Source: Microgenomates group bacterium (GTDB lineage Bacteria; Patescibacteriota; Microgenomatia; UBA1400; MFAQ01). Taken from it: a stretch of DNA of 64,000 nucleotides. Where the stretch lies: contig JBAQNH010000002.1 of the NCBI GenBank assembly GCA_049303575.1, positions 180,717-244,716 of the forward strand, written 5' to 3'. The notes beneath the pieces are model-generated. The model made no database searches and was not told the origin of the DNA. It saw only the letters and a list, made by a program, of their open reading frames with translations. Positions 12,553 to 53,763 of this stretch are shown piece after piece; position 1 is the first letter of the stretch, and each line of letters begins with the position of its first letter. The translations under genes and the position numbers were made by a program.

Positions 12553-12877
12553 AAAGTCTGGTTTTCTAAAAACTTTCTTTATTGTTATAGCCCTCGTTCT
12601 TTTCGGCATCTTCATCGGTGTTGTTGCCGCCCGTTTTCTCCCTATGCCTGGGACGGAAGTTCCCGTTGTTACCCCAACTCCGATAATTACTGTTACTCCC
12701 TCTCTTACTCCGGAGGTTACCCCAGTCTCTACCGCTTCGGCTAACTTTATTTGTCCAGCAAATGGCTGGGTAGACTGTATGCCAATACTTGACGAGGCAA
12801 AAACAATCTCTTGTTCTGCTGAAGCTATGGCTTGGTACAAAGTCAACTGTCCCAATTTTCAGGGAGCAGCTCTCTAG
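12299..12877 (+). CDS. Membrane-anchored hypothetical protein (Pro-rich N-terminus, one TM, Cys-containing ectodomain). Start uncertain; the 5' part overlaps the previous gene in another frame.
   Basis: LKTFFIVIALVLFGIFIGVVAARF TM helix, with 4 Cys in the C-terminal domain. An alternative start is ATG 12491 (MYQEIPPK...). Confidence 0.4.
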   Translation: MDPDQTPNLQPNPLPSDAPQNQTSTPFSSPISQEITPPAAWSSDQTPPLVSSTPPTSPEPISPPMYQEIPPKSPLPVKGIPSSSKKSGFLKTFFIVIALVLFGIFIGVVAARFLPMPGTEVPVVTPTPIITVTPSLTPEVTPVSTASANFICPANGWVDCMPILDEAKTISCSAEAMAWYKVNCPNFQGAAL

Positions 12878-14978: not shown

Positions 14979-15541
14979 ACCCCGTACAACCTACAACTGG
15001 AGCGAAGCGAAGTTGTACGGGGGTGAAGAGCACAGACTAACACACGAAGTGTGTTAATCTGTCATCATGGAAGCCAGAAGTTTGAATCACTCGGTTTACT
15101 ACCATCAGTATCACGTTGTGTGGGGTACGAAGTACAGGAGACAGTATCTCCAGGAGTACGTAAAGAAAGCCTTTGAAATATATGTCAAACGAGTAATATC
15201 TAAGTACCCCACAATTCAACTAATCAAGGTCAATACGGATATTGATCATGTTCATCTACAACTTTCAATACCGCCTAACATGGCTGTCTCACGGGTGGTG
15301 CAGAAGGTGAAACAGGAGACAAGTAAACTCCTCAAGAAAAGATTTAAGTTCATTCGAGAAATCTATCCCTTCGAGGGTATCTGGAGTGTTGGGTACTTCT
15401 CCTCAACCATCGGGCTGAATGAGGAAACTGTCACGCGGTATATCGACAGTCAAGGGAAGAGAGACAAGGGGAGACAGTACAAACTCTGGCTCCCATGATG
15501 CCGCCAAAGGAAACCCCGTACAAGCAAAGCGTAGTGCGGGG
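14979..15541 (+). mobile_element. IS200/IS605-family insertion sequence (tnpA only) with subterminal hairpins; boundaries approximate
   Basis: Left hairpin CCCCGTACAAC-(21 nt)-GTTGTACGGGG (14980-15022) and a second hairpin AACACAC-gaa-GTGTGTT (15038-15056) upstream of tnpA. Right hairpin CCCCGTAC-(9 nt)-GTAGTGCGGGG (15514-15541) downstream. Both ends share the CCCCGTACA arm, the arrangement expected for Y1-transposase IS. Confidence 0.65.
15067..15498 (+). CDS. tnpA: IS200/IS605-family Y1 (HUH) transposase TnpA
   Basis: 143 aa; YHQYHVVWGTKYRRQYL (IS200 N-terminal signature), HUH motif HVHLQLSIPP, catalytic-Tyr region GYFSSTIGLNEETVTRYIDSQ. Confidence 0.85.
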   Translation: MEARSLNHSVYYHQYHVVWGTKYRRQYLQEYVKKAFEIYVKRVISKYPTIQLIKVNTDIDHVHLQLSIPPNMAVSRVVQKVKQETSKLLKKRFKFIREIYPFEGIWSVGYFSSTIGLNEETVTRYIDSQGKRDKGRQYKLWLP

Positions 15542-18567: not shown

Positions 18568-19269
18568 TTATCCATTTCTATCAAGATATGCAGAATATTT
18601 ATCACATTTGTATTTCAAGAATGGGGCATGGATAATGTCTCGGTAAATAAATTCTGAAACCATGATCGCATTTCTCCAGTTATATCTCAGTTTATAGGCC
18701 CCGTATCCATAAGAGATCGAACTCTTGATTTCTGGAAAAACACTCATAATTTTTGTTGTTAATTGTTCAAGAAACATTTTACTTCCACTCGTAAAAATAA
18801 TATTCATCCTATTCTTCTTGTTTTTCTCAATGTTGATACACCCATCTCCGTCAAAATAGCCTCGAAGGAAATATTCAAAATATTTGTTAGGTATTTCCGG
18901 TAATTTGATGACTAACGATTTTCTTGGACACAATCCTATTTTAACCAGGTCATCATAAATTTTTTTGTTTCCTATTCTGACACGATACGATGTCTTACAC
19001 CAATATTCTTTCTCTCGAATTTTAATTTTTCGAGGACCTCTTTTCTGGATTATTTGCTTAGTAGACATGGCGGCCATCATATCTTTAAGAATATCTAAGT
19101 CGTTATTTGCTAACAATATATAGCATGCCCTCGAAGATTCTCTACAATCTTCAACTGCTCCATCAGCATAAATAAATCCCAAAACGTAAGCCATTTTTGG
19201 TGACCACTTTTTAAAAAAGTTTTCATCAACCTTTTTTCTGTTATATCCACCTCTTTTGTCTTGTTCCAC
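18568..19269 (-). CDS. LAGLIDADG-family homing endonuclease (two LAGLIDADG motifs), free-standing
   Basis: Motif 1 YVLGFIYADGAV and motif 2 FLRGYFDGDGCI. GTG start at 19269. Confidence 0.8.
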   Translation of the reverse strand: MEQDKRGGYNRKKVDENFFKKWSPKMAYVLGFIYADGAVEDCRESSRACYILLANNDLDILKDMMAAMSTKQIIQKRGPRKIKIREKEYWCKTSYRVRIGNKKIYDDLVKIGLCPRKSLVIKLPEIPNKYFEYFLRGYFDGDGCINIEKNKKNRMNIIFTSGSKMFLEQLTTKIMSVFPEIKSSISYGYGAYKLRYNWRNAIMVSEFIYRDIIHAPFLKYKCDKYSAYLDRNG

Positions 19270-31100: not shown

Positions 31101-31158
31101 ATCTCACTGTTGGCCGGAAGGCTTACCGGTCACTACATCAGGATTCGAAGAGGAATAA
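28153..31158 (+). CDS. UvrD/PcrA-type SF1 helicase fused to a C-terminal Cas4/AddB-like PD-(D/E)XK Fe-S nuclease domain (AddA-like single-chain helicase-nuclease)
   Basis: Helicase motifs LNDAQRQAVD...LAGPGTGKTQVL, DEYQDTN. Nuclease motifs GKADRIDLV, VDYKTG, QLVFYQLL. Cys cluster C...C-x2-C-x5-C (HCERCDFRSHC). Confidence 0.8.
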   Translation: MPKTTPEFDQAYKKLNDAQRQAVDTTEGPVLVLAGPGTGKTQVLATRIANILKETDAAPESILALTYTDAATREMKERLIKLIGKDGYYVKVTSYHSFCSDIISENPERFSRPKGLSIATDLEKIQLIKDILEGDTFPLLKPAGDPTYYLKYILGAIADLKREGYPIDKYKQMVNLLKEEFEIEKGDLKKVALKEKETLVGKNTDLLKIYEKYQEKLVELGRYDFEDMINWVVDAFEKDSDFLLTYQEKFQYILGDEYQDTNNSQNRLIFSLANFWGEEANVFVVGDPNQSIFRFQGASKENVLEFQKRFPNLKKIVLEQNYRSTKNLLTASAGLISESPLHHTVKFQDLPIKVAKFSSPLFEDEFITDTIKRKIRAGAKAADFAVITKDNADIENLVNLFKSKGLPYRLEGGVDILSTPLISQLLKIISLVTTFQSKTDDLDLFLVLNFPYFKLNPLSILKISRYAHEKHESLMDTLFDAHPEINPAVIDVFHLLLSWNSKASTHTVPEMFQMIFQESGLLDYILALPQPIQQLNRFGTLFEDVKKQAEAFPGLDLFGYVINLKTMAENGLKLEEMALIGDKNAVTLTTVYKAKGLEWKTVFIYRFADTHWGNHTKRQMIKLPPGILSLEDVDKEDKNAEERRVFYVALTRAKKNLYLTGSTQYPSAQKMVFPSMFLEEIPKNTRQLIKVSKYQKNAEKILGKLMSVSTTPVLHDGEKEYLKEIIKDLKLSPTALNKYLECHYKFKLDNLYRIPRTTPPSASFGTAVHTALQYLYLNLENTKKVEPLKVFLSDFEVALRREILSDSDFKNYLEKGKKVLSAYYDFYKESFTPALFTEKKFGSSLTSQIVLDDIPLTGKADRIDLVSKADKHVRFVDYKTGQPKSRNDIEGLNKNTNGDYKRQLVFYQLLADLDRSFSYKVTQNELQFIETDKGGNFHQERFNITKEEVNDLKKLIRETMASIRALNFDRTTEYRHCERCDFRSHCWPEGLPVTTSGFEEE

Positions 31159-31169
31159 TATATAAATAT

Positions 31170-31853
31170 ATGCCCTTACTTTTTGTTATCCTTAGTCTCC
31201 TCGGACTCCTTCTTACCAAAAAGAAAATGACCATTGATCTATCACGTCTCGTTCATCGTTTTGGTGGTAGTCAACACTCCGCCATTATTGTTTGGAGTAT
31301 TATTTTTCTTCCGGGCACTATTGTTCATGAAATTTCCCATTTTCTTTTTGCTGCTCTTACCGGTGCCCGCACCGGTAAAGTAGAAATCTTTCCTGAGTAT
31401 TTGGAAGAAGAATTAGATGAAAAGAAAAACACACGAGTAACTCTAGGCTCCGTCCGAACTCAAAAGTTAAATCCCCTTCAGGGCTTCCTCGTCGGCATCG
31501 CCCCTTTTATTTCCGGTATGGCGCTACTCATCTGGTTAGCATCACTGCTCCAAACCAGTTATTACGCAGGCAACACCTGGATTCTTGTTTTAGAGGGATA
31601 TCTCTTCTTCACCATTGCCAACTCCTTCTTTCCTAGCTGGACGGATATTAAACAAACACTTCCTTTCGTAGTCATTTCCCTCGTCGTTGCTCTTCTTGCC
31701 TGGTATTTTGGTTTCCAAATTTTCCTCGACTCTAGCTCCTATGTTTGGACAGTTCTTGACGCTCTCTGGAAAGCTGTCTTAATCAGTATTTTCTTCAATC
31801 TTGCCATAGTTGGTATACTCTTCTTTCTACGTAAACTCTTTGAGAAAAAATAA
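31170..31853 (+). CDS. Hypothetical polytopic membrane protein with HExxH motif (putative zincin-like membrane metalloprotease)
   Basis: VHEISHFLFAALTG within a TM region, about 6 TM helices. Start set at ATG 31170. Confidence 0.45.
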   Translation: MPLLFVILSLLGLLLTKKKMTIDLSRLVHRFGGSQHSAIIVWSIIFLPGTIVHEISHFLFAALTGARTGKVEIFPEYLEEELDEKKNTRVTLGSVRTQKLNPLQGFLVGIAPFISGMALLIWLASLLQTSYYAGNTWILVLEGYLFFTIANSFFPSWTDIKQTLPFVVISLVVALLAWYFGFQIFLDSSSYVWTVLDALWKAVLISIFFNLAIVGILFFLRKLFEKK

Positions 31854-31917
31854 AAGCAAATCTTGATTTCGGGTAATATATGGTATTAAATGATATATAG
31901 ATAAACTTAATTCAACG

Positions 31918-32871
31918 ATGAATTCAATTCAGACTATTCAAGATACCTTCGATGTAAATGCAATTTATGCACATAAATTGCATAGTCTCACCAAAGGTGA
32001 TAATTATATTGAGGAAGTTAGAAGGACCATTAGCGAAAAACCAAAACCAATCGTCAAATGGGTCGGGGGAAAACGACAGTTATTGTCGCAATTTCGATTA
32101 TTAAACCTCTATCCCCCAAGTGGTTTCAACCCAAATAAATCTACATATTACGAACCGTTTGTTGGAGGCGCCGCCGTTTTTTTTGATCTTCTTCCAGAAA
32201 AAGCTTTCTTGTCAGATCTAAACAATGATCTAGTGATAACTTACAACGTAATAAAAAACGATGTTGATGAGCTGATCGATTCACTTAAAAAACACGTCTA
32301 TGAAAAAGAATATTTTCTTAGAGTTAGAAAACTCGACCCAAGGAAGCTATCGAAGATTGAAATTGCATCTCGTTTTATCTACTTAAATCGCACGTGTTTC
32401 AACGGTATGTATAGAGTAAACAAAAGTGGACAATTCAACGTTCCCTTCGGAAGATATTCAAACCCACAAATTTGTGATGAGCTCAATTTACGCAGGGCTT
32501 CAAAAGCTTTAAAAAACATTGAAATAAACTGTGAGGATTATAAAGAAGTATTAAATAAAGCCAAAAAAGGTGATTTTATTTATTTTGATCCACCATATTA
32601 CCCAATTAATTCCACGTCGTCATTTACTTCTTACACCCCTAACGCCTTTTTAGATAAAGAACAAATTGAGCTTCGGGAGACATTTGCACAGCTCAGCGAT
32701 AGAGGGTGTTACGTAATGCTTTCAAACTCAGACACTCCATTTATCAACAAAATATATTCTGAATTAAAAAATAAAGGAGTCAAAATAACAAAGATTCTAG
32801 CCGGAAGGGCAATCAACTCAAAGGCTTCGAGAAGAGGTAAAATTACCGAAGTGTTAATAACAAATTACTAA
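31918..32871 (+). CDS. Dam-family DNA N6-adenine methyltransferase (alpha class)
   Basis: KWVGGKRQLL (Dam motif I), PFVGGAAVFF, FIYFDPPYY (motif IV DPPY). It lies in an AT-rich block distinct from the flanks. Confidence 0.85.
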   Translation: MNSIQTIQDTFDVNAIYAHKLHSLTKGDNYIEEVRRTISEKPKPIVKWVGGKRQLLSQFRLLNLYPPSGFNPNKSTYYEPFVGGAAVFFDLLPEKAFLSDLNNDLVITYNVIKNDVDELIDSLKKHVYEKEYFLRVRKLDPRKLSKIEIASRFIYLNRTCFNGMYRVNKSGQFNVPFGRYSNPQICDELNLRRASKALKNIEINCEDYKEVLNKAKKGDFIYFDPPYYPINSTSSFTSYTPNAFLDKEQIELRETFAQLSDRGCYVMLSNSDTPFINKIYSELKNKGVKITKILAGRAINSKASRRGKITEVLITNY

Positions 32872-32884
32872 AAATACAAAATAA

Positions 32885-33406
32885 ATGATTACAAACGGAT
32901 TTGGAGGAGGAAATACAATTACCGGTTTAAACTTCGAAAAAGAAACAGACATACTTAGTTTGTTGAAAACTAAGAGAGACTACTCCGTTGCCGACAATAT
33001 TATTTATTTTAAAAAGAAAGAAGTAGCAAAAAGTTTCAAAAAGCATGCATTGTATCCTTTTTTAAAAACAAAAGGTGTCGATTATAAGAAAATAATTTCA
33101 AAAAAATTATTACCTGATGAAGCAATTTATGTAATTGTGAACAACACACTTTTTGTAATTGAAGTAAAGTTTCAAAAAGTCGCAGGGTCAGTCGATGAAA
33201 AATTACAAACATGTGACTTTAAAAGGAAGCAGTATGCAAAACTGATGGCACCATTAAATATTGAGGTTGAATATATCTATATTCTTAGCGATTGGTTTAG
33301 AAAATCAGAATACAAAGATGTGTTGGATTATATAATTTCAGTTGGCTGTCAGTATTATTTTCAATATCTACCATTACAAAAGTTGGGACTTCCTATCCCT
33401 GAATAA
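32885..33406 (+). CDS. Small PD-(D/E)XK nuclease-fold protein (candidate restriction endonuclease subunit)
   Basis: ...KGVDYKKIISKKLLPDEAIYVIVNNTLFVIEVKFQK...: a D...(D/E)-x-K arrangement like Hjc/REase catalytic cores. 173 aa. Confidence 0.45.
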   Translation: MITNGFGGGNTITGLNFEKETDILSLLKTKRDYSVADNIIYFKKKEVAKSFKKHALYPFLKTKGVDYKKIISKKLLPDEAIYVIVNNTLFVIEVKFQKVAGSVDEKLQTCDFKRKQYAKLMAPLNIEVEYIYILSDWFRKSEYKDVLDYIISVGCQYYFQYLPLQKLGLPIPE

Positions 33407-33431
33407 AGTCAGATTACTATTATTATCAGTA

Positions 33432-34190
33432 TTGATTAAAAAAGACATTGTACTTAATCCAGATGAGTTTGAATTGGAATGCACATCTGTGTGGGCATTC
33501 CCTCGAAGAGGAAATTGGGCAACACACACTTCTGACTGGCGAGGAAATTGGGCTCCAGAAGTAGCTAGAAATTTAATACTACGCTACACATCAGAAAATG
33601 ATTGGTTGCTTGATCCGATGGTGGGAGGTGGTACTTCCGCGATAGAAGCCAAGATTCTTAATAGACACATTATTTGCACGGATATTAACGAATTAGCTCT
33701 TATAAGAACAAAGAAATCGCTTGAATTTGATGCAAAAAACAATGCAGAGCAAAGGTTATATAAGTGTGATGCTCGAGACCTGAAAAAAATAAGTAACGGG
33801 AAAATTGACTTTGTATTAACCCATCCACCTTACGTTGATATCATCAAATACAGTGAAGGAAACATAGAAGAAGATCTTTCAAATATCCACGACTTAGATA
33901 TTTTCGCAAATGAAATGAAAAAAGTTGCAGATGAACTTTATAGGGTCCTTAAAAATGGAAAATACTGTGCAATTTTAATCGGTGATACTAGAAGAAATAA
34001 AATGTATCAACCCCTTGCCTTTAAGGTTATGGAAAGATTTATTAATGCCGGTTTTGTATTGAAAGAAGACATAATAAAAAGGCAGTTTAATTGCAAAGCA
34101 ACTGGGTTTTGGGTAAACAAATCAAAACTAAACAACTTCCTGTTAATTATGCACGAACATTTATTCGTATTTCAAAAACCTACTGTTTAG
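33432..34190 (+). CDS. SAM-dependent DNA methyltransferase (N6-adenine/N4-cytosine type; motif I before motif IV). Start uncertain: TTG 33432 or TTG 33342.
   Basis: Motif I LDPMVGGGTSAIEAKILNRHIICTDINE and motif IV FVLTHPPYVD. No in-frame ATG near the 5' end; the track ORF begins at TTG 33342 and would overlap the upstream gene by 64 nt. Confidence 0.6.
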   Translation: MIKKDIVLNPDEFELECTSVWAFPRRGNWATHTSDWRGNWAPEVARNLILRYTSENDWLLDPMVGGGTSAIEAKILNRHIICTDINELALIRTKKSLEFDAKNNAEQRLYKCDARDLKKISNGKIDFVLTHPPYVDIIKYSEGNIEEDLSNIHDLDIFANEMKKVADELYRVLKNGKYCAILIGDTRRNKMYQPLAFKVMERFINAGFVLKEDIIKRQFNCKATGFWVNKSKLNNFLLIMHEHLFVFQKPTV

Positions 34191-34194
34191 AAAA

Positions 34195-34647
34195 ATGAAT
34201 AAGCTGTTAACAGAAGATTTTGTCCAAAATAATATAATTAAATATCTTTCCAGAACTGGATGGAGTAAAAGCTTGAAATCGAAAACACTTAAGGAACACG
34301 GAGTTGATATTAAGGTCAGGAACAACAATTTTGCAAGATATTGGCTGATCGAAGTCAAGGGTGATGCAAGCGAAACAGCGAAATATCCTAGATCTCATAG
34401 AGAAGTAAACTTTAATCTCGCCTTGGGGCAAATTATCACCCGTATGCAATCGAACGGAACAAGGGGTTATAAATACAGGTATAAATATGGTGTGGGGTAC
34501 CCAACTTCATTTAAAAATCTAATTGTTCGAAGATTACCTTATGATGTGTGCGACAAACTAAATCTTTATATATTTTTAGTTGACGAAACTGGAGAAGTTG
34601 AGCTGCTCGATTGGAAAGGATTAAAGAAAATCCAATCTTCTCATTAG
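34195..34647 (+). CDS. Small Hjc-like PD-(D/E)XK nuclease-fold protein (candidate second restriction endonuclease subunit)
   Basis: ...LKEHGVDIKVRNNNFARYWLIEVKGD... closely resembles the Hjc/archaeal-resolvase and REase core (VDxx...IEVK). 150 aa. Confidence 0.45.
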   Translation: MNKLLTEDFVQNNIIKYLSRTGWSKSLKSKTLKEHGVDIKVRNNNFARYWLIEVKGDASETAKYPRSHREVNFNLALGQIITRMQSNGTRGYKYRYKYGVGYPTSFKNLIVRRLPYDVCDKLNLYIFLVDETGEVELLDWKGLKKIQSSH

Positions 34648-34661
34648 CAAAATCAATTTTA

Positions 34662-44304: not shown

Positions 44305-46260
44305 CTAATCGACCTTGATTAAGTAAGTGTCGCCTTCTTTCCAAACCATTTCTCCAAGTTGCCATATTTTTTCTTCATTAACCTTGTAGGTTATTTTTTC
44401 GTCAAGACCAACCAGTATCCAGCCTATGTTGTACTTATCAAGTATTTCTTTTGTTTTCTCAATACTCGCTCCCTGGTATATCTCCTTAACTTCGGTTTCT
44501 CGGGAAGCCACCGCACTATAACCACCCCTCCACAACCACTCGTGTACCCGCCAACCTTGAATTGTTGGCACTCCGGAAAATACCGACACGGCATTAAATA
44601 GGGTATAGCTGTCACCGACCGCCTCAACCATATTTTTCCCGTCCATATTTTTTCTCAGATATTTCACTGCTCCATAATTTTCCGGGACTTTAGTCTGCAT
44701 CCATTTTTCACCATCCAAACCATAATAATTCGAAAAATTATCATAGTAAGTGGTGAAGGCTATAAACGAGAAGTTCATCGTTCCTACAAAGATAAAGAAA
44801 ATAATAAATGTTGCCGCGACTCTCAAACCTAAAACAATTTTTTTACCTCTATCTAATAAATTTCCCAAAGTCACTCCCAATAAAATTCCCATCAGAATAA
44901 ACGCTTGATAAGTTAGTTTGAACATTGTATTTGCCCTTGGATGGTTTGGGTAAATGTCTCGGGCGAAGACAAACTCTGGAATCGCTATCAAAAACACGGC
45001 ACTTAGAGCCAGTGTTCGAATAACTATTTTTTTCTCACCTCTCCCCTCGATAATCATTGCCAAAATATTAACCACCATTCCTCCGCTCCACAGAACTAAT
45101 AACTGCCAAAAAGGCGATCTTTCCGTTACCACCTCTACCCCGCTTGAAATCGAAGTAAACGACAGCCACCAGGGTAAAGCCACCAATAAAAACGATACCA
45201 ACATTATTCCCGCCGTTTCCAAAAGCTTTTTCAATTCCCCGGTGTTCGCCACAATCATCTGTATCCCCAAAACCAAAAGTACCAAACCATAAACCGCTAC
45301 ATCCCAGGTATTGGTCATCATCATTACTCCAAACAAAACTCCCATTACTATCTCGTAAACTCTTTTTTTATTTTCAACCCAGGAAAACAGTACTACTAAA
45401 AAAGTCAGAATAATTGGCAAATCCAATACGTGGCCATGCAAATCGGAAACCACAAAACTATAGCTAGGAAACTCATGAATGGTATTGTGGATGAATCTGG
45501 TGGCTTCAGCATACCAATAATTGTCAAGACTCCTGTTCTTAATTAGATACCAGATTACATGACTATTCCCGGCTACCATCACCGCCAGGGCGCCAACTAT
45601 TCCCCCAATTGTGGATGCTCTGGAATTTTTGTTTCCGGCGAGCATTACACATACCAAAAATACCAAACTCATCGAAGTACCAAAGATAAAAGCTAACATC
45701 AAGTTATAACCTACTGCCGGTGTCACCCCCCAAACTCTTACCCAAATACTGGCCCAAAAATGTCCAAAGGAATAGTAATTAATTGTTTGCCCTGCTTGCC
45801 ACATATCCGGAGCCGGTAATGTGGGTGACAATAAATATTGTTTTAGAAAACCGAAGTCCATAAATTTTTCCAAGCTATCCAAATTTGGCGCGTGTGCTCG
45901 AATCAAAGCCATCACTCCAAATCCGACTAAAAAAAGATATTCTTCAATGGCGATTATTTTGGCCGTCGTTCTTGCTACGGTAAAAGCTTTTACTCCGTGA
46001 GTAATAATTTGCCACAAACTTAATAGACCAAACAAAGCTAGAATTGCGAACAGTTTTCCGCTATTATTTTCCGCAATACCCAAGTAGCTCAACTGCCAAA
46101 TTAAAAGAGCTGCCACCAAGGTGGCCATCACCCTCCCCAAAGCCCAACCCTGATCCGGTAGTTTAGAAAAATACTTTTTAATTAAAGGCCAAACTAAAAA
46201 TTGCAAGCCAAGACTGATGACATATGTCCTAAGGATCGTTATCAAGTCAACACTCCACAT
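44305..46260 (-). CDS. Large polytopic membrane protein (DUF2298/YYY-family-like, putative glycosyltransferase) with C-terminal soluble domain
   Basis: At least 12 TM helices followed by about 150 aa of soluble C-terminus. Family assignment is tentative. Confidence 0.45.
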   Translation of the reverse strand: MWSVDLITILRTYVISLGLQFLVWPLIKKYFSKLPDQGWALGRVMATLVAALLIWQLSYLGIAENNSGKLFAILALFGLLSLWQIITHGVKAFTVARTTAKIIAIEEYLFLVGFGVMALIRAHAPNLDSLEKFMDFGFLKQYLLSPTLPAPDMWQAGQTINYYSFGHFWASIWVRVWGVTPAVGYNLMLAFIFGTSMSLVFLVCVMLAGNKNSRASTIGGIVGALAVMVAGNSHVIWYLIKNRSLDNYWYAEATRFIHNTIHEFPSYSFVVSDLHGHVLDLPIILTFLVVLFSWVENKKRVYEIVMGVLFGVMMMTNTWDVAVYGLVLLVLGIQMIVANTGELKKLLETAGIMLVSFLLVALPWWLSFTSISSGVEVVTERSPFWQLLVLWSGGMVVNILAMIIEGRGEKKIVIRTLALSAVFLIAIPEFVFARDIYPNHPRANTMFKLTYQAFILMGILLGVTLGNLLDRGKKIVLGLRVAATFIIFFIFVGTMNFSFIAFTTYYDNFSNYYGLDGEKWMQTKVPENYGAVKYLRKNMDGKNMVEAVGDSYTLFNAVSVFSGVPTIQGWRVHEWLWRGGYSAVASRETEVKEIYQGASIEKTKEILDKYNIGWILVGLDEKITYKVNEEKIWQLGEMVWKEGDTYLIKVD

Positions 46261-46267
46261 ACTACTA

Positions 46268-47518
46268 TCATAAGTCCCTTTCTATCATTTTGGCGACATC
46301 GTTCCCCATCTTCACAGCATAATTTGTTCCTCGGTCAAACGGGTAAACCATACTCATGTTGGCCAAATATAAACCTTTATGTTTAGTCTTTATCTTGGGT
46401 AATTCTTTTGAGTAGTTCACCGGGAAAACCGGCTGAGCAAAAGGTTTTCGGAAAACGGCCGCACCCTTAATCCACTTTTTTCTGAAAAGTCGATTCACTT
46501 TCCGTAGATAAGGAAGATACATCGTAATCAGCTCTTCTTGAGTCATCTTTAGTTGTTTACTGTCTTCCGGTAAATAATTTCCTAGGTATAAAACCCTGTT
46601 GTTTCCATAATATTTTTTATCAATCATATTAGTATGTTCCACTACCACTAAAAACGGCCAATTCTTTTCCAAAATATTCATCCAATAGCCTCTTATAAGT
46701 TTTTTATTAAGTTTCAACATCACTGTCTGTCCCCATAGATACGAAATCTTCGGGAAGGGATCCATTTCAACGTCTAATATTTTTTCCATCACTGGTGCGG
46801 GCACCGTCACCACCACTCCATCAAAATCAGCATCGTCAACAAGCCACTTACCGTCCTCTCTTTTTTTAATCTGATTGATTTTTCTTCCCAGTATGATTTT
46901 TCCACCCAGTCTGATGATTTTTTCGCCGGTTTTTTCTGCCAATTTTTGGAAACCTTCTTCAAAATATCCCAAATTTTTGGTTCTTTTAGCAACTCTGGTC
47001 CAAAACCAAGACATATTTACAGTAGAGGCAAAAGGTCCAAACTTTGCTTTCAGAAGTTTTTCCCAAATAATTCGATATCCTTCTTTCCCGATTAATCGAG
47101 GTAACATCTCTACCACTTTATATTTCTCAAAAAACAAACCATTTGGAATAAGCTTCAATATCGCCAGCCCGATACCCATTTGTACTCGACTAAAAATACT
47201 CAACCCGGAAAACTTTAACAGTGAAACAGGAGAGTCGAGCTGGACCTCTTTTTTGTTAAGAAAGCTTGTGGTTACCGGGTTTTTAACCAACGTCTTAGCT
47301 CCGACATCTTTAGCCAGCTCCAGAATATCTCTGTCGTTTGTAAAAACGTGATGATAAAAATACTCCAAACTCCACTTCCAATTCTTCTCGCGTACCCCTC
47401 CGGCCAATCCTCCCAAAGTATTTGCCTCTTCATACAAAACAACATCAACATTTTTTTTCACTAGAGCAAGAGCACAAGCAAGTCCGGTAAAACCACCCCC
47501 AATTACGGCAATCTTCAT
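46268..47518 (-). CDS. FAD/NAD(P)-binding oxidoreductase (amine-oxidase/desaturase-like)
   Basis: N-terminal Rossmann dinucleotide-binding MKIAVIGGGFTGLACALAL...LYEEANTLGG. Confidence 0.6.
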   Translation of the reverse strand: MKIAVIGGGFTGLACALALVKKNVDVVLYEEANTLGGLAGGVREKNWKWSLEYFYHHVFTNDRDILELAKDVGAKTLVKNPVTTSFLNKKEVQLDSPVSLLKFSGLSIFSRVQMGIGLAILKLIPNGLFFEKYKVVEMLPRLIGKEGYRIIWEKLLKAKFGPFASTVNMSWFWTRVAKRTKNLGYFEEGFQKLAEKTGEKIIRLGGKIILGRKINQIKKREDGKWLVDDADFDGVVVTVPAPVMEKILDVEMDPFPKISYLWGQTVMLKLNKKLIRGYWMNILEKNWPFLVVVEHTNMIDKKYYGNNRVLYLGNYLPEDSKQLKMTQEELITMYLPYLRKVNRLFRKKWIKGAAVFRKPFAQPVFPVNYSKELPKIKTKHKGLYLANMSMVYPFDRGTNYAVKMGNDVAKMIERDL

Positions 47519-47520
47519 GT

Positions 47521-48897
47521 TTACAAGGCTAACAAGATTCCTACAATCGCGAGTAATAGTCCTCCACCAAAGGCTGCGATCCCGGGAAGATCAAAGATAC
47601 CAGCTTCTGGAAGAATTGTCGGTGTGGGTGTTGTTGTTACCACCGCTACAACTGTTTGCGTCGGTGTTGGTACGGATACCGTCGGCGCGGAAGTGACCAC
47701 AACTGTTTGCGTCGTGGCTGCACAGGTACAATCATCTTCAGCTGTACAGGCTGCGGTTCGACATTTACTCGTTGTAGTGTCACAGGTTAGTCCGGTTGTA
47801 CACTCGGCGTTGGTGGTACAGGTATTGTTACATCCAACTACTGTGCTCACAGTTAGATCCTTAACGAGACTCAGTGTTCCACCCGGGAATGTCACTTTTC
47901 CCGTATTAGTAATTACCGTACCGTTAGCAACTCCCTCACTAGCCTTTACTCTGAAGTTAAACTTCTTTGTTTCAGCAGGACTAATTGTTGTATTACATGT
48001 TAGTTCCGTATCTGTTGCACTCCAAGTACATCCGGCACTGGCGTCCATAAATGTGACCGGCATATCTTTCAACGAGTCTTTAATCACGACACTGGTAGCA
48101 TTTGCCGTACCCGTATTTGTCAGTGAAATTGAATAAACGTATATTTGGCTCTTAGACACGGTACTCATCTCGGACGTCAGTGTATAAGTTCCAGCCACAT
48201 TTTCCGTCTCGTTTTTAAAGGCGGTCTTGCTTCCTGAGAGAGTTATGACAACCGGAGGTTCAACCCTTAAGCTATTTAGCCCTGTAAAAGTCTGGCTACC
48301 CAAAGTAGCAATCGCCGCGTTATCAATAGTAGAAGCTAGTGTAAAATCACCCGTTACCTTTACCCTGAAATACTTTTCTATACTTTGTCCGGCTGTAAGG
48401 TTGAAAGCGGTGCAACTATATTTTCTTGTCGCAGCATCAAAACTACAACTTTGATTGGCTGGTGAGTCAACGAAAGTTAGCTTGTCTAAGTTTCCCCCCA
48501 TCAGAGTATCACTCAAAACCACCCCACTTACAGGATCAGCTCCGATGTTTTTTACTTGAATTCGGTATACAAAAGTAGCTCCCATCGTCGCCATATCTGT
48601 GTCAGTTCTTATGGTGTAACCTTCAGTTTTTGCAGCATCATCTACGTATGTCGAGGCTTTCTTCACCACGGTTACGTTCGTCTCTGCTGCCGTTGCTGTT
48701 CCGGTCACTGTACAGGCAGGGTCACCAACCCACTGAGTTCCGATTGGTGTTATTTCTGCTGCTGCGGGTTCACTCTCTGGCGCAGTCGGAGCCACGGCTT
48801 CTCGAGTAGAAAGCTGAGTTGCCACGTAAATCGAAGCGCCTCCAAGAAGAATCACAATTAGTACAAGGGCAATGGCTAGTATTTTTTTCTTATTCAT
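47521..48897 (-). CDS. Cell-surface protein with N-terminal TM anchor, DUF11-like beta domains, Cys-rich region and C-terminal LPEAG + TM sorting-like signal
   Basis: N-terminal ILAIALVLIVILLGG then YVATQLSTREAVAPTAPESEP. C-terminal ...TPTILPEAGIFDLPGIAAFGGGLLLAIVGILLAL. Confidence 0.6.
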   Translation of the reverse strand: MNKKKILAIALVLIVILLGGASIYVATQLSTREAVAPTAPESEPAAAEITPIGTQWVGDPACTVTGTATAAETNVTVVKKASTYVDDAAKTEGYTIRTDTDMATMGATFVYRIQVKNIGADPVSGVVLSDTLMGGNLDKLTFVDSPANQSCSFDAATRKYSCTAFNLTAGQSIEKYFRVKVTGDFTLASTIDNAAIATLGSQTFTGLNSLRVEPPVVITLSGSKTAFKNETENVAGTYTLTSEMSTVSKSQIYVYSISLTNTGTANATSVVIKDSLKDMPVTFMDASAGCTWSATDTELTCNTTISPAETKKFNFRVKASEGVANGTVITNTGKVTFPGGTLSLVKDLTVSTVVGCNNTCTTNAECTTGLTCDTTTSKCRTAACTAEDDCTCAATTQTVVVTSAPTVSVPTPTQTVVAVVTTTPTPTILPEAGIFDLPGIAAFGGGLLLAIVGILLAL

Positions 48898-48902
48898 TTA
48901 TC

Positions 48903-50795
48903 TTATGGTGTGGTACTAACTTGTGCTTCAAACTGATAACTTCCGGGTGATCCAACTAGATAATCTGAGTAACTTGATACCTTTGCTACGGTTGAACTTG
49001 CAGACATCCAGTTTCCAGGAATGTTATTTACATGTACTCTAAACTGTGCCCTCAAATTATCAAGACTTCCTGTTACTGAGAATTTGAGCAAGTCACCCAC
49101 CTTTAAACTTTGTAGTTGAGTCGCGGTTAGTGGTGTGGCTGGATATACTCCGTTTACGGCCTTGTAAATCTTGACATTTACACACGCTCCTACAACTGGT
49201 GTTGTTGGCGTTGTCGCTTTATATCCAACTACGACGTCAAAATCGTTAAAGTCATAGTTTGCATCCAACTGTCCTCTGGTATCGTTGTCAGCTCCTTGAA
49301 TTGTATCCGCCCAACACTGGAATGGTGAACTAATTCCTGCTGTCGTAGAAATTCCAAAGCTGCTTAATGCCGATGGTGTTATCCTCGAACTGATATCTCT
49401 TAACTCGCCATATCTTCGACAACTTCCTCCAGAAGGATTAATATAGCCCAAGGAGTTTGTTGTTTCGTTTCCCAACTTTATGGTAACTGTATAAGTTCCC
49501 GGTTGGATCACTGCATCAAAATTATTGTCGTCAACTTTTGTTATGGCTGCACTGGTTCCGGTTCCAGCCAAGGTAACCGTTGTTCCGGCACTTGCTCCTG
49601 TAAGGTGAATACGTACTGTTCCTGCCGTTGTGAAGTTTATGGTGTTAATTTTGCTTCTGTCTGGATTACAAATCAGCTGGTTCTCTTGGCTACTCGTTGC
49701 CCCCGCTATATATGTATATGACACACACACATCAGTTCCACCAACAGGAGCTGTTGGTGCTGCTGTCGTGGTTGGAGCAGCCGTTGGAGCAGCTGTTGGT
49801 GCTGCTGTCGTGGTTGGAGCAGCCGTTGCTGTTGGCACTACCGGAGTACACGAACCCCATTCTCCGCAAGCTGGCTTTGATGCAATTCCTAATGAAATAC
49901 AAGTTCTTGTACCAGCCACTCCCGCGATACCGGAAGTACAACCAGATGTCTGAGCGGTTACACACTCACAAGCTTGTGTCGGTGTTGGTGTTGATGCGGC
50001 AGCACAGCTACTATTGTCTACACAATTTGAAGAGGGACAAGCTTGGGTATAACCAACTGTTGTCGTTGTTGTAGCACAAACGCTTCCGGAACAATTACGA
50101 ACGGTACAAGTTTTTGTAGTAGGAGTAGCTGTTGGTGTTGGTTGGGTAGTACAAGTCGCATCTGGAGTACAGTAATAACCTGCAAAAGAAGTCCCTGGAG
50201 CCTGAACTTTACACCTTTCACCTGTTTGACAGCCTGCTGCAACTCCACACGTTCCCTCTTTGTCGGCGGCACATCTACTGCCAGCCAAAGGTTCACTCTC
50301 TGGTGCTGTTGGAGCTATTGCCTGCCTTGTCGATAATTGATTGGAAACATAGTAAGCCGCTCCGGCTACACCAACAACCAGTAGCAAAGCCACAATACCT
50401 CCAATAATTGGAAACATCTTTTTCTTGGGGCTTTCTGCCGGCATTGATACTTCTTCTGGAGCAGGTGTCGGTGCCGAAAAAGGTTCCGGTGAAGGAATGG
50501 TTGTTGTTGTGGTCGTGGTTGTAATTGGTTCCGATTGGGGAGTAGGTGTGGGCAAAGATTCTGGACTTGGCCACGGCGTTATTGGAGCCGTTTCGGCTGG
50601 TGGGGTCATCGTTTCGGCGGGAGTTACTGCAGTTTGTTCAACGGGAGTAACTGGTTCAGTATAAGTTGTTGTCGTTGTCGTCGTTACTGGAGTCGGGGTC
50701 GGGGATTCGACGGGAGTTATGTCTTCGGCCACCTCGGGGGTAACCGGAGTCGTACCCGAAACCAAAGGCTGATTAATTTTATTTTGATCGTCCAT
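48903..50795 (-). CDS. Thr/Pro-rich, Cys-rich cell-surface protein with internal TM anchor
   Basis: About 130-aa T/P-rich N-terminus, TM (MFPIIGGIVALLLVVGVAGAAYYV), then SNQLSTRQAIAPTAPESEP (shared with the previous gene), a Cys-rich module, TAAPT tandem repeats and beta-rich C-terminal domains. Confidence 0.6.
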   Translation of the reverse strand: MDDQNKINQPLVSGTTPVTPEVAEDITPVESPTPTPVTTTTTTTYTEPVTPVEQTAVTPAETMTPPAETAPITPWPSPESLPTPTPQSEPITTTTTTTTIPSPEPFSAPTPAPEEVSMPAESPKKKMFPIIGGIVALLLVVGVAGAAYYVSNQLSTRQAIAPTAPESEPLAGSRCAADKEGTCGVAAGCQTGERCKVQAPGTSFAGYYCTPDATCTTQPTPTATPTTKTCTVRNCSGSVCATTTTTVGYTQACPSSNCVDNSSCAAASTPTPTQACECVTAQTSGCTSGIAGVAGTRTCISLGIASKPACGEWGSCTPVVPTATAAPTTTAAPTAAPTAAPTTTAAPTAPVGGTDVCVSYTYIAGATSSQENQLICNPDRSKINTINFTTAGTVRIHLTGASAGTTVTLAGTGTSAAITKVDDNNFDAVIQPGTYTVTIKLGNETTNSLGYINPSGGSCRRYGELRDISSRITPSALSSFGISTTAGISSPFQCWADTIQGADNDTRGQLDANYDFNDFDVVVGYKATTPTTPVVGACVNVKIYKAVNGVYPATPLTATQLQSLKVGDLLKFSVTGSLDNLRAQFRVHVNNIPGNWMSASSTVAKVSSYSDYLVGSPGSYQFEAQVSTTP

Positions 50796-50857
50796 GCGTT
50801 TAAGTACGGTCCATTAAAGAGGGCCTGTCTACACTATAAAGAAGTTTTGGTAATTTA

Positions 50858-52243
50858 TCAATCTCTCCACCATTTTTTTGATGTTCGTCCAAAAATAAAT
50901 AATATAATTCCCAGTATTCCCATTAAAATAGTAAAGTCCAAAGCTCCGGCTTCTTCCAACGTCCCCGAGCTGGTTGCGGGCATACTTGGTTCCTCAGTTG
51001 GTGTTGCCGACACGGGTGCCGACACCGTTGCTGTCGGTGAAATTGGTGAAACAGTAACCGTCGCCGAAGGTGTCGCTGTAAATGCCGGCAATCCTGCCGT
51101 ACTGTCCGACGCCAAAACGGTAAAGGTTCTGATTACTTTCTGGAAGATATTGTTTTCATCGGTGTACTCCAATGTCAGAGTATGTACTCCCGGTTCTAAA
51201 TTTTGAGGAGGAGTCCACTTCCAAACGCCATCTTTATCAGCCTTAATAATCTGTGTCAATTCAATCGGAGAGTTTACTGTAACTCTGATGGTTGTTCCGG
51301 GGGTCGCTTTTCCCGCAAACTCCGGTGAACTAGTGGCTATCATTTCTCCGTTTATTGCCGGATTCATAATTATCATCGAACCAGCCGCCTCGGTCGCTTC
51401 TGGTGCGAGAACGGGAGCCGCTTCTTCGGTGATATTTTTAAAACCACCACTTTTTATATCGGACTCGACCAATGTTCCCGAACCTGTTGCCACAGTTGTC
51501 TCCACAAAACTTTGATTTTTTCCTAATACAATGTCGGGTACCGGTTTGGTTTTTTCGGTATTAGTAATCGCCGTTGCGGTTCCCGAGATGCCCGCCTGAA
51601 CAAAAATTGAGACAAGTGACGTCTTGGGATCATACGTCAAAACCGCTCCGTCTTTGTCCCGCGATAAAGCCAAGTTTAGTCTCCAAGATCCATTGTTTGT
51701 CATCGCCGACAAAGTCTCTCCCCCCTGAACCTCGACATAAACAATCGCGTTGTTTATGGGACTAGAATCAGCGCCAATTACTTTTCCGCTTATGACGTCT
51801 TCAGGAGGTGCAATCACTTGTTGCCCCGTTCGTACCTCAAAAGGTTTTCCGGAGTCATCGTATGTCTGGGATCCTGATCCAATCATAAAATAAATAGTCT
51901 TGTCCGGATTTAATCCAGTTACTTTTACATAGTGATTGGTATAGCCCTGAGAACTTCCCGATATTTGATCACGGATATCACCCGCAGGTGTTGTGATTTT
52001 TGCTGGATTTTCCGAGTAACTTAGATATCCCGTTACTGGTGTATCGGTTGTCCAGCTAACGGTGAAGGTATTTGCTCCTCTATCGGATATCTTTACATTT
52101 TTTGGAGCTTCCGTCGGCCCGGCTTTGGTTAAAAGACCTTGGCGGTTATTTACGAGAACCACACCCGCAACCAAGCCTCCTAATAATATTAGGACTCCGA
52201 GGGCTGTTGGTATTTTCTTGGCCATCAGGCCTGTTTTATTCAC
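50858..52243 (-). CDS. Cell-surface protein with FN3-like and Ig-like domains and C-terminal LEEAG + TM + basic-tail sorting-like signal
   Basis: Signal/TM, FN3-like (NVKISDRGANTFTVSWTTDTPVTGYLSYSEN...YVKVTGLNPDKTIYFMI). C-terminal ...SSGTLEEAGALDFTILMGILGIILFIFGRTSKKWWRD. Confidence 0.6.
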   Translation of the reverse strand: MNKTGLMAKKIPTALGVLILLGGLVAGVVLVNNRQGLLTKAGPTEAPKNVKISDRGANTFTVSWTTDTPVTGYLSYSENPAKITTPAGDIRDQISGSSQGYTNHYVKVTGLNPDKTIYFMIGSGSQTYDDSGKPFEVRTGQQVIAPPEDVISGKVIGADSSPINNAIVYVEVQGGETLSAMTNNGSWRLNLALSRDKDGAVLTYDPKTSLVSIFVQAGISGTATAITNTEKTKPVPDIVLGKNQSFVETTVATGSGTLVESDIKSGGFKNITEEAAPVLAPEATEAAGSMIIMNPAINGEMIATSSPEFAGKATPGTTIRVTVNSPIELTQIIKADKDGVWKWTPPQNLEPGVHTLTLEYTDENNIFQKVIRTFTVLASDSTAGLPAFTATPSATVTVSPISPTATVSAPVSATPTEEPSMPATSSGTLEEAGALDFTILMGILGIILFIFGRTSKKWWRD

Positions 52244-52562
52244 TTATTTGTATTTGTGTTGTTGCCGAACCTGTAGACTCCGGTACTACTGGTTCGGTTG
52301 TCTCGGTTATCTCGGGCGTTGGGGTAGTAATCAATAGTAACCCCATCTCGGCTTCGGTATATACAGTTCTCTTTTCGAGATTGTCGATTACTGTTTGGTT
52401 GATTGCACCATCTAAAGATTTAATTGCTTTTGCTTGCTGTGTTGTCGTCTGACTTTTTACTGAGGCGGAGTAGATCTGGTAAGCCACTATTCCACCCACA
52501 ATAGATAGTCCCATTACTCCTACCAATAATATATAAGAAGATAGCGTTCTGGTTGCTTTCAT
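52236..52562 (-). CDS. Small membrane-anchored hypothetical protein in the pilNO operon
   Basis: N-terminal TM (YILLVGVMGLSIVGGIVAY) and a Thr/Pro-rich C-terminus. Confidence 0.4.
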   Translation of the reverse strand: MKATRTLSSYILLVGVMGLSIVGGIVAYQIYSASVKSQTTTQQAKAIKSLDGAINQTVIDNLEKRTVYTEAEMGLLLITTPTPEITETTEPVVPESTGSATTQIQISE

Positions 52563-53218
52563 TGTTTGTCGGTATAGAAGTAAAAGGTCATTTGTCCGGT
52601 AGCATTAAGTGAATCTTCTGTCCTAGTCAAACCAACTTGTTTAGTAAGAGAGACACTATTAAGTAAAACCAACCGATCCATATTTTCAACATCTTTAAGA
52701 AAAACAATCACATCTTGCGGTTTTCCTCTCACAGAAAACGTTAACTGATTAGACAAAATGTTTGCACTCGGTTTAATTAATTTTGTAGCCCATTCACCTC
52801 CAGTTTTTCCCTCACCAAGAAGAGAAATTCCTGGAAAAGCCAACGAATCGAGAACCAAATTATTTTTTTTTGCCACATATTCCAATCTAAGAGAACTATC
52901 AATATAGGAGAAGTTATCCGGAACAGCCTCGTCAAAAAGTCTCAACTTGCCTCTGAACGTATTTAGTTGATTCTGTGCATTCAAGAGTTGGACAATTTTA
53001 TTGTCGGCCTTTTTATTAATTACTTCTTGATCCTCAATTTTTTTCTGTAGGGAGACAATGTTGGTAAGTGTTGGTCTTATCGCGGCAAATATCAATATCG
53101 CTATGGTAAATACCGACAAAATTACTTCCAAAGATGCTCGTATCTCCGGACGTTTATACATCAGACTCACCCTTTGAAAGTAAAGAGAGTATTTTTCGTT
53201 GTTTAGTATGCTTGCCAT
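52559..53218 (-). CDS. pilO: Type IV pilus assembly protein PilO-like
   Basis: N-terminal TM followed by a coiled coil and a C-terminal ferredoxin-like region; positioned directly after pilN with a 1-nt overlap. Confidence 0.45.
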   Translation of the reverse strand: MASILNNEKYSLYFQRVSLMYKRPEIRASLEVILSVFTIAILIFAAIRPTLTNIVSLQKKIEDQEVINKKADNKIVQLLNAQNQLNTFRGKLRLFDEAVPDNFSYIDSSLRLEYVAKKNNLVLDSLAFPGISLLGEGKTGGEWATKLIKPSANILSNQLTFSVRGKPQDVIVFLKDVENMDRLVLLNSVSLTKQVGLTRTEDSLNATGQMTFYFYTDKQ

Positions 53219-53763
53219 TATTTAAAAGTAATTTGAACACCAAACTTCACTCCTCCGGTTGTTTGATCAAAGCTGGTTTCTTTCATGGTAATTGTTGCCA
53301 CCCCGGGCATTCTCTTGATCCCGCTAATAAACTGGGCAAATCCATACTCCGATTGTGCTTTTCCTACAACCATCAGACCGTCTTTATCAAGAGATAGACT
53401 GTCAAGGGAAGTTCCCACGGGTAAAATCTGTGTCAGGCCATCAATTTTTGATGCAAAAACAAGACCACTTCTTTGTGAAGTCTCCACCGGAAGTTGTTTG
53501 GCCAAAACCTTTCGCATCTCTACTTCCACCTCGGCATAAGCCGCAATCTGAGCTTCTTTTTGTATCAAAACTTCTCCCAAGTCGTCAAGTTTTTTATCAA
53601 AATAAAACCGAGATGCAAATGCCAGCAACACCACGAACTCAGTTAAGACCACCAAAACCCTGCCTGCTGTTGTAATCCACTTTAAAGTTTTCCCTGCAGT
53701 AGAGAACTCGAAACTATCCTTTGGCAATAAGTTAATACTAGAAACACTATGAGCAGTAGCCAC
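53218..53763 (-). CDS. pilN: Type IV pilus assembly protein PilN-like
   Basis: N-terminal INLLP motif (characteristic of PilN), then a single TM and coiled coil. Confidence 0.5.
   Translation of the reverse strand: MATAHSVSSINLLPKDSFEFSTAGKTLKWITTAGRVLVVLTEFVVLLAFASRFYFDKKLDDLGEVLIQKEAQIAAYAEVEVEMRKVLAKQLPVETSQRSGLVFASKIDGLTQILPVGTSLDSLSLDKDGLMVVGKAQSEYGFAQFISGIKRMPGVATITMKETSFDQTTGGVKFGVQITFK

Follow-up and report, generated by a model that had tools for sequence, protein, structure and literature searches.

We analysed a 64,000-nucleotide stretch of a Microgenomates group bacterium genome (contig JBAQNH010000002.1, positions 180,717 to 244,716; hereafter the window), whose minus strand carries what is probably the distal part of a conserved cell-envelope operon from a Collierbacteria-like member of the Microgenomates, within the candidate phyla radiation (CPR, or Patescibacteria). 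Three large proteins are encoded there: one with Pfam-assigned FN3, CarboxypepD_reg-like and Big_13 domains and a membrane helix at each end (50858-52243; hereafter the FN3 protein), a type-II anchored, Thr/Pro/Cys-rich protein of 630 amino acids (48903-50795), and a surface protein that combines CLIPPER (DUF11) and DUF7619 domains with the same N-terminal module and an LPEAG C-terminal signal (47521-48897; hereafter the DUF11 protein). All three are exported and inserted into the membrane at their N-termini, and they look like surface stalk or adhesin proteins. We regard it as probable, though far from assured, that they represent sortase-type wall-anchored, adhesin-like proteins. A sequence-only reading of the window had proposed sorting-like signals at the ends of these proteins, and comparison with homologues supports this view: the N- and C-terminal modules are real, conserved and specific to the lineage.

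The DUF11 protein and the Thr/Pro/Cys-rich protein share a juxtamembrane segment, hereafter the N-module, which was delimited by pairwise comparison and a profile search to 48766-48828 on the minus strand in the former, YVATQLSTREAVAPTAPESEP, and to 50289-50351 on the minus strand in the latter, YVSNQLSTRQAIAPTAPESEP. The sequence-only reading had recognised this sharing correctly, but had given the segment a length of 19 residues; it comprises 21, of which 17 are identical. At the DNA level 42 of the 63 nucleotides agree, and the longest identical run is exactly the 14 nucleotides noted previously. That run had been taken as a possible sign of recent module exchange, an idea we rejected because the DNA divergence lies mostly at synonymous sites: 12 of the 16 differing codons differ synonymously, which argues that the peptide has been kept by protein-level selection rather than copied recently. 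Chance similarity was also rejected, since the N- and C-terminal modules recur in more than 100 homologues with unrelated middle parts.

The layout of the module is one transmembrane helix, about 12 residues, and then the motif [VI]AP[TN]APxSxPxA. A profile of 38 positions, of the kind that had been proposed as a check, was searched against 1.84 billion representative proteins and matched 311 of them at E≤1e-3 and 46 at E≤1e-10. These matches span 59-996 amino acids and end in several ways, namely in two LPx[TA]G classes, in the YxFEAQV end of the Thr/Pro/Cys-rich family, as small Cys-rich proteins or as fragments. All source-named matches come from Patescibacteria/Microgenomates, cluster-member names reading only “Patescibacteria group bacterium”. 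The module always directly follows a single hydrophobic helix, located either near residue 15-50 or behind a Pro/Thr-rich N-terminal extension of 80-210 amino acids, the latter in 53 of 128 representative proteins, with the extension partly conserved (MDDQNQTNQP...). The positions A-P-[TN]-A-P-x-S-x-P-x-A are invariant, the stretch from helix to motif is almost free of insertions and deletions, and conservation ends right after the last alanine, where the sequences turn variable. In the AlphaFold2 (AF2) model this stretch has a predicted local distance difference test score (pLDDT) below 50, and it is probably extended or disordered. A weaker form of the motif occurs in the FN3 protein (52103-52150, minus strand; NNRQGLLTKAGPTEAP), where [KQ]AGP[TS]x[AS]P is kept in 111 of the 120 listed homologues. 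None of the other exported proteins encoded in the window (VanW, a solute-binding protein, an M23 peptidase, PEGA and LCP) carries the motif. Pfam and NCBIfam had no meaningful match to the N- and C-terminal segments taken alone, and a literature search with the motif strings returned a single, unrelated paper. The module thus appears undescribed and, judging from its pattern of substitutions, appears to be kept by purifying selection.

At the other end of the DUF11 protein lies a tail-less LPXTG-type signal, LPEAGIFDLPGIAAFGGGLLLAIVGILLAL (47524-47613, minus strand), consisting of LPEAG followed by 25 mostly hydrophobic residues and no basic tail. The sequence-only reading had placed an L[PE]EAG pentapeptide followed by a helix at the C-termini of both the DUF11 and the FN3 proteins, and both were found where it had placed them, but its statement that they do not match LPXTG was not borne out. 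Among 107 homologues of the DUF11 protein, nearly all end in the 30 residues LPx[T/A/S]G-[IL][FL]D[FL]PG-[VI]AAFGGGLLLA[VI][VI]GILLAL, and the pentapeptide is LPETG in 65, LPEAG in 15, LPESG in 7 and LTDAG in 6. Because LPETG forms the majority, the LPEAG of the window is best read as a variant sortase-type signal and not as a new kind of motif; by this comparison it is a minority form, or lineage variant, of the canonical LPXTG. The signal is kept even where the protein middle is unrelated (P0100-P0103). L429, P430, G433, D436, G439 and FGGGL (443-447) are invariant in the full-length alignment (A2), and nearly all of the approximately 105 homologues carrying the signal end in GILLAL, with a few in LLAF or LLAI. 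A second, more distant class ends in LP[ED]AG-x-S/T-x-PT plus a helix and is likewise tail-less.

The C-terminal signal of the FN3 protein (50861-50959, minus strand), defined by homologue comparison, consists of LEEAG, a helix and the basic tail GRTSKKWWRD. The 120 listed homologues of this protein are 49-100% identical to it, and in 114 of them the final 12 residues include at least three K/R. About eight residues upstream of L-x-x-[TAS]-G the family has an invariant M-P-x-T (window positions 50960-50995, residues 417-428), and this MPxT, rather than LEEAG, might be the actual recognition site of the family. A hydrophobic membrane-spanning segment follows the pentapeptide in both the DUF11 and the FN3 proteins, whereas an LPXTG-like pentapeptide near the C-terminus is found in the DUF11 type only and a basic tail in the FN3 type only, so that each of the two signal families lacks one classical feature of sorting signals. 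On sequence grounds the FN3 C-terminus would be a looser relative of the LPXTG signal, serving either as a second sortase signal or as a permanent second membrane anchor. AF2 models the FN3 protein with a helix at 14-34 and another at 434-460, between them three beta-sandwich domains and then a Thr/Pro linker that is disordered, and Foldseek matched it only to generic tandem FN3/Ig stalks (adhesin SiiE, an ice-binding adhesin and an S-layer protein). Neither the FN3 protein nor the DUF11 profile had a match in sequence searches of the PDB. The FN3 protein probably starts at the ATG at 52225, as does a 100%-identical database protein (P0242).

The Thr/Pro/Cys-rich protein has no C-terminal signal. 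Its layout comprises a P/T-rich cytoplasmic N-terminus of about 125 amino acids, a transmembrane helix, the N-motif, a Cys-rich region and two beta-sandwich domains. In its family the N-terminus MDDQNQTNQP is conserved, and about 120 Pro/Thr-rich residues separate it from the helix (window positions 50420-50795); this extension implies that the cytoplasmic part is functional and that the type-II anchor is retained. The two beta-sandwich domains (residues 380-630) were modelled by AF2 with pLDDT mostly 80-95, and Foldseek gave weak matches to GH2 sugar-binding/Ig domains and LecB-type lectins. A linker of short AAPT/TAAP tandem repeats, TAAPTTTAAPTAAPTAAPTTTAAPTAP, is present in this protein (window positions 49715-49830). 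A similar layout without the N-motif is found in a 192-amino-acid protein encoded at 12299-12877 (Pro/Thr-rich N-terminus, helix and Cys-containing ectodomain), whose gene overlaps the 3′ end of a 1070-amino-acid HerA/NUDIX open reading frame (ORF). The DUF11 protein contains PF01345 (48.7 bits), PF24595 (45.6 bits) and TIGR01451 of NCBIfam (42.3 bits), all above cut-off. DUF11 is now called CLIPPER, a CnaA-like stalk domain that is often isopeptide-bonded and is found in fibrillar adhesins and pilins, which usually have sorting signals (PMC12617251). It is the combination of beta-sandwich (FN3, Big_13, CnaA-like CLIPPER and lectin-like) and Cys-rich modules that makes the three proteins adhesin- or stalk-like.

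The three genes belong to a dense array of nine genes that runs on the minus strand from 54028 to 44305 in the order rpsT, pilN, pilO-like, small transmembrane protein, FN3, Thr/Pro/Cys-rich, DUF11/DUF7619, flavoprotein and DUF2298, with intergenic distances from pilN to DUF2298 of -1, -4, 10, 62, 5, 2 and 7 nucleotides. All six ORFs named in the sequence-only reading were recovered with the boundaries it had given. The pilN gene (53218-53763) encodes a bitopic type IV pilus alignment protein with an N-terminal INLLP (PF05137, 27.3 bits against a cut-off of 22.8, E=3.7e-6). It overlaps by one nucleotide a pilO-like gene (52559-53218), which scores 18.7 bits with PF04350, below the cut-off of 22, and is the conserved partner of pilN in all related loci. 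The latter overlaps by four nucleotides the gene of a single-pass transmembrane protein of 108 amino acids (52236-52562), which matches no Pfam or NCBIfam family and has an orthologue in nearly all related loci. Downstream of the DUF11 gene, Pfam identified an amine-oxidase-like flavoprotein (46268-47518) and a large DUF2298 membrane protein (44305-46260). The murJ gene lies divergently upstream of the string, and an LCP gene, tpi, uvrD and two femAB genes come after it; the two FemAB, LCP and MurJ constitute the monoderm envelope genes of the window. The dense packing behind pilN-pilO and the conserved gene order fit co-transcription, as had been proposed. The strongest promoter-like match of the region, TTGATA-17-TATAGT (10/12; 50833-50861, minus strand), is located in the 62-nucleotide gap between the FN3 and Thr/Pro/Cys-rich genes, 3′ of the former, where an internal promoter is possible. 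The promoter and terminator scan gave site counts not above those of shuffled sequence.

Exact-protein look-ups, together with one genome scan seeded with alignment A2, yielded about 45 related loci. The order pilN, pilO, small transmembrane protein, FN3, one to five N-module proteins, flavoprotein and DUF2298 was found in every sufficiently long locus except the distant L013 and L045. These two have PilN/PilO at 28-35% identity and another flavour of N-module; they retain the string from pilN, pilO and the small transmembrane protein to FN3 and the surface proteins, and in place of the flavoprotein and DUF2298 they carry a PMT-family protein O-mannosyltransferase plus multi-pass proteins (L013, 9075-13667; L045, 11544-15199). 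LCP and femAB genes are always near the string, and this proximity, together with the exchange of PMT for DUF2298, hints at glycosylation of the Thr/Pro-rich surface proteins. Depending on the locus, one to five N-module proteins are encoded between the FN3 gene and that of the membrane enzyme (L008, L024, L025, L036 and L045), and because the paralogues share their end modules only, duplication and diversification of the surface proteins in situ is suggested. When N-module proteins were picked blind to their location, four of five lay in this cluster, the exception being a giant of 2526 amino acids. The closest named species-representative relative is Candidatus Collierbacteria GW2011_GWA2_42_17, with 87-94% protein identity across the cluster; further relatives are Collierbacteria, Woesebacteria and “Patescibacteria group” genomes. 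Many metagenome-assembled genome records that clearly belong to Patescibacteria (L015, L017, L018 and others; same cluster, up to 94% identity) are titled “uncultured Pseudomonadales bacterium”, and one “Spirochaetia”, apparently in error. An exact database look-up of the DUF11 protein found no identical entry. The conserved pilN-pilO-linked cluster itself appears undescribed. The unrelated flanking genes murJ, lepA, hrcA-grpE-dnaK, tpi, uvrD and femAB are collinear in the same loci, so that conserved order alone is weak evidence of a functional link.

If the proteins are anchored by sortase, as we think probable, the DUF11 protein would be cleaved at its LPx[T/A/S]G signal by a housekeeping sortase whose gene lies in another part of the genome, and would then be transferred to the peptidoglycan, whose cross-bridges would be made by the two nearby FemAB homologues. 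The FN3 protein would be a second substrate or be anchored at both ends, and the Thr/Pro/Cys-rich protein would stay anchored through its N-terminal helix, given its lack of a C-terminal signal and its conserved cytoplasmic N-terminus. The N-module would be read by a membrane-bound partner: a site for a membrane-bound enzyme is suggested by the module's unvarying spacing from the membrane, by its Pro/Thr/Ser composition and by the large membrane enzyme constantly encoded next door. Candidate reactions would be O-glycosylation of its Thr/Ser by the adjacent enzyme (DUF2298 here, PMT in the distant relatives) and proteolytic processing after PxA. The sortase family is found almost throughout Microgenomates (PMC6744442), and a complete Microgenomates genome has a sortase gene (PMC7143001).

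Several observations weigh against this interpretation. No sortase gene is present in the 64-kb window, and a regular-expression search for TLxTC-type sortase-like ORFs over about 800 kb of related loci returned only spurious matches. Classical sorting signals need a positively charged tail, which the DUF11-type signal lacks, and the pentapeptide of the FN3 family, L[ETA][EDN][TAS]G, is without proline. TIGR01167, PF00746 and other curated sorting-signal models matched neither the C-termini (those of the window or an LPETG consensus) nor the full proteins at E≤10. By Pfam clan membership DUF2298 would be of glycosyltransferase nature; BLASTP found no similarity between DUF2298 and PMT, and a PDB search with DUF2298 gave no match. 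Cleavage, glycosylation and wall linkage are steps that we infer from sequence.

Two alternatives concern the modules themselves. The N-module might be nothing but part of a Sec signal peptide of the Gram-positive style, namely its long hydrophobic core and its polar end, removed by signal peptidase I and without further role. Proteins with a short leader do show the corresponding layout, in which basic residues are followed by a hydrophobic stretch (about 20 residues), then by polar residues and by an invariant alanine, directly after which, at PxA, conservation stops. That alanine, however, lies about 24 residues past the helix with proline at -3, a position and context unfavourable under signal-peptidase rules; the extension in front of the module in the 53 of 128 representatives implies a retained type-II anchor, and the other exported proteins of the window do without the motif. 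We consider this explanation unlikely; it bears on the N-module only and is compatible with sortase anchoring. At the C-terminus, the tail-less domain (LPxTG..PG..FGGGLLLA..LLAL) might be no sortase substrate at all and instead be read by an unknown membrane-embedded sorting enzyme resembling exosortase, archaeosortase or rhombosortase. Its helix and spacer are far more conserved than in ordinary LPXTG signals (D436, G439 and FGGGL 443-447), as is typical of xxx-CTERM domains, and the missing basic tail and the failure of the LPXTG models point in the same direction. We judge this quite improbable, however, since most homologues have the canonical LPETG, sortase occurs almost throughout the lineage (PMC6744442), and neither the window nor the neighbourhood listings contain an exosortase, archaeosortase or rhomboid family match.

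Other alternatives assign the proteins to a pilus, an association that the sequence-only reading had also suggested; the synteny behind it is conserved, but that of the unrelated flanks is as well. The FN3 protein, and possibly the N-module proteins, could be structural partners or cargo of the PilN/PilO alignment complex, one possibility being a wall-spanning part that stands in for PilP/PilQ in monoderm cells. The genes of pilN, pilO, the small transmembrane protein and FN3 overlap or nearly abut and are contiguous in every sufficiently long locus, down to the most divergent PilN/PilO pairs (28-35% identity), the FN3 protein is conserved as much as PilN, and the blindly picked N-module proteins lay mostly (four of five) in the cluster. 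In addition, the listed type IV pilus locus of a complete Microgenomates genome has PilM and not PilN/PilO (PMC7143001). Against this stand the collinear unrelated flanks, which weaken synteny as functional evidence, the merely generic tandem FN3/Ig matches of the FN3 protein, the location of the 2526-amino-acid N-module protein outside the cluster, and the content of the window: its ORFs include no Pfam match to PilM, PilB, PilT, PilC, PilD or a pilin, and the prepilin motif G-[FMLIVYW]-[TS]-[LIVM]-x-E (G-F-T-L-x-E) occurs in none of its frames. Such a role is conceivable, but we would not expect it. The three proteins were rejected as type IV prepilins themselves, as their N-termini have no short basic leader ending in Gly and no F/M-T-L-x-E. 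A Gram-positive-type, sortase-polymerised pilus, with the DUF11 protein as the pilin and the N-module supplying the polymerisation nucleophile, is very improbable. The CnaA-like isopeptide-type domains and the LPXTG-like signal resemble those of pilins, and many homologues have Lys in the xSKPxA position, but the two window proteins have E there, the residue varies among K/E/R/Q/L/V, and no pilus-specific sortase adjoins the genes in any locus. The pilin motif of Gram-positive bacteria was rejected on the finding of neither YPK nor an E-box. A further, rather doubtful proposal is a Microgenomates-specific surface-assembly system, in which a PilN/PilO platform, the small transmembrane protein and an FN3 protein with two anchors would handle a family of proteins that bear a mark at each end (the N-terminal helix with VAPTAPxSxPxA at one, the tail-less domain LPx[T/A]G-FGGGLLLA at the C-terminal one). 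Such a system would amount either to a new sorting pathway with two signals or to the missing part of the CPR type IV pilus that spans the wall.

Comparison with known systems shows both resemblances and differences. The proteins agree with LPXTG/sortase substrates (TIGR01167, PF00746) in the C-terminal LPx[T/A/S]G, LPETG in most homologues, followed by a hydrophobic helix, in the Thr/Pro-rich linker ahead of it, in their adhesin-type Ig-like domains and in their origin from a monoderm lineage that commonly encodes sortase. They differ in that the DUF11 type is tail-less, with a strongly conserved spacer and glycine-rich helix and often A for T, the FN3 type lacks proline, the curated models find no match and no sortase was found in the window or related loci. 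LCP-dependent glycosylation of an LPXTG protein before its anchoring by sortase has been described for GspA of A. oris (PMC6381275). Here too, sortase-type substrates with Thr/Pro-rich segments are encoded near LCP and large membrane (glycosyl)transferase-like proteins, but the adjacent enzymes are DUF2298 or PMT, and the analogy is a precedent in kind only. Like the PilM-PilN-PilO alignment subcomplex, the cluster is headed by overlapping genes for PilN with INLLP and a PilO-like protein, whereas PilM, the ATPases, the platform protein, prepilin peptidase and pilins are missing from the window, and described type IV pilus loci have no counterpart of the genes downstream of pilN-pilO. The PEP-CTERM/exosortase, PGF-CTERM/archaeosortase and GlyGly-CTERM/rhombosortase systems also combine a short motif with a strongly conserved extreme C-terminal helix in otherwise unrelated proteins of one lineage; the present signal has another motif, no basic cluster and no NCBIfam match, and no such enzyme is encoded in the window or the neighbourhoods. 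The YSIRK-G/S signal peptides likewise add a conserved motif to the N-terminal export signal of a subset of wall-anchored proteins, but YSIRK precedes the hydrophobic core, while the N-module has another sequence, follows the helix at a distance of about 12-24 residues and is found behind long N-terminal extensions as well.

The remainder of the window consists of housekeeping genes and a low-GC (0.34) island at 31900-34650, which carries two DNA methyltransferase genes and PD-(D/E)XK-like genes and is probably an acquired restriction-modification cassette. Beside it, at 31110-31853, lies the gene of a multi-pass membrane protein that contains an HExxH motif, matches nothing in Pfam or NCBIfam and by its sequence may be an intramembrane metalloprotease. 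An IS200-like transposase gene (15067-15498) and a free-standing LAGLIDADG endonuclease gene (18568-19269) were also found. The GC skew is negative in nearly every 2-kb bin of the window whatever the gene orientation (cumulative -5.2), a pattern that resembles the disparity in strand composition reported in another genome of the Microgenomates (PMC7143001).

CPR/Patescibacteria presumably live attached to host cells, and little is known of the way in which they build their surface. The C-terminal signals described here are a variant of the known LPXTG kind, while the N-module and the cluster appear undescribed. Two searchable tags, the N-module and the tail-less LPx[T/A]G C-terminal domain, pick out an adhesin-like family across Collierbacteria- and Woesebacteria-type genomes, and a conserved operon ties this family to PilN/PilO and a large membrane enzyme. 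Should these tags serve as processing signals, they would define the sortase substrate set of the lineage, and possibly that of a glycosylation or protease step, and a sorting signal would work without the basic tail that has been deemed necessary in Firmicutes. A functional link to PilN/PilO would bear on the way in which the type IV pili of monoderm ultra-small bacteria traverse the wall.

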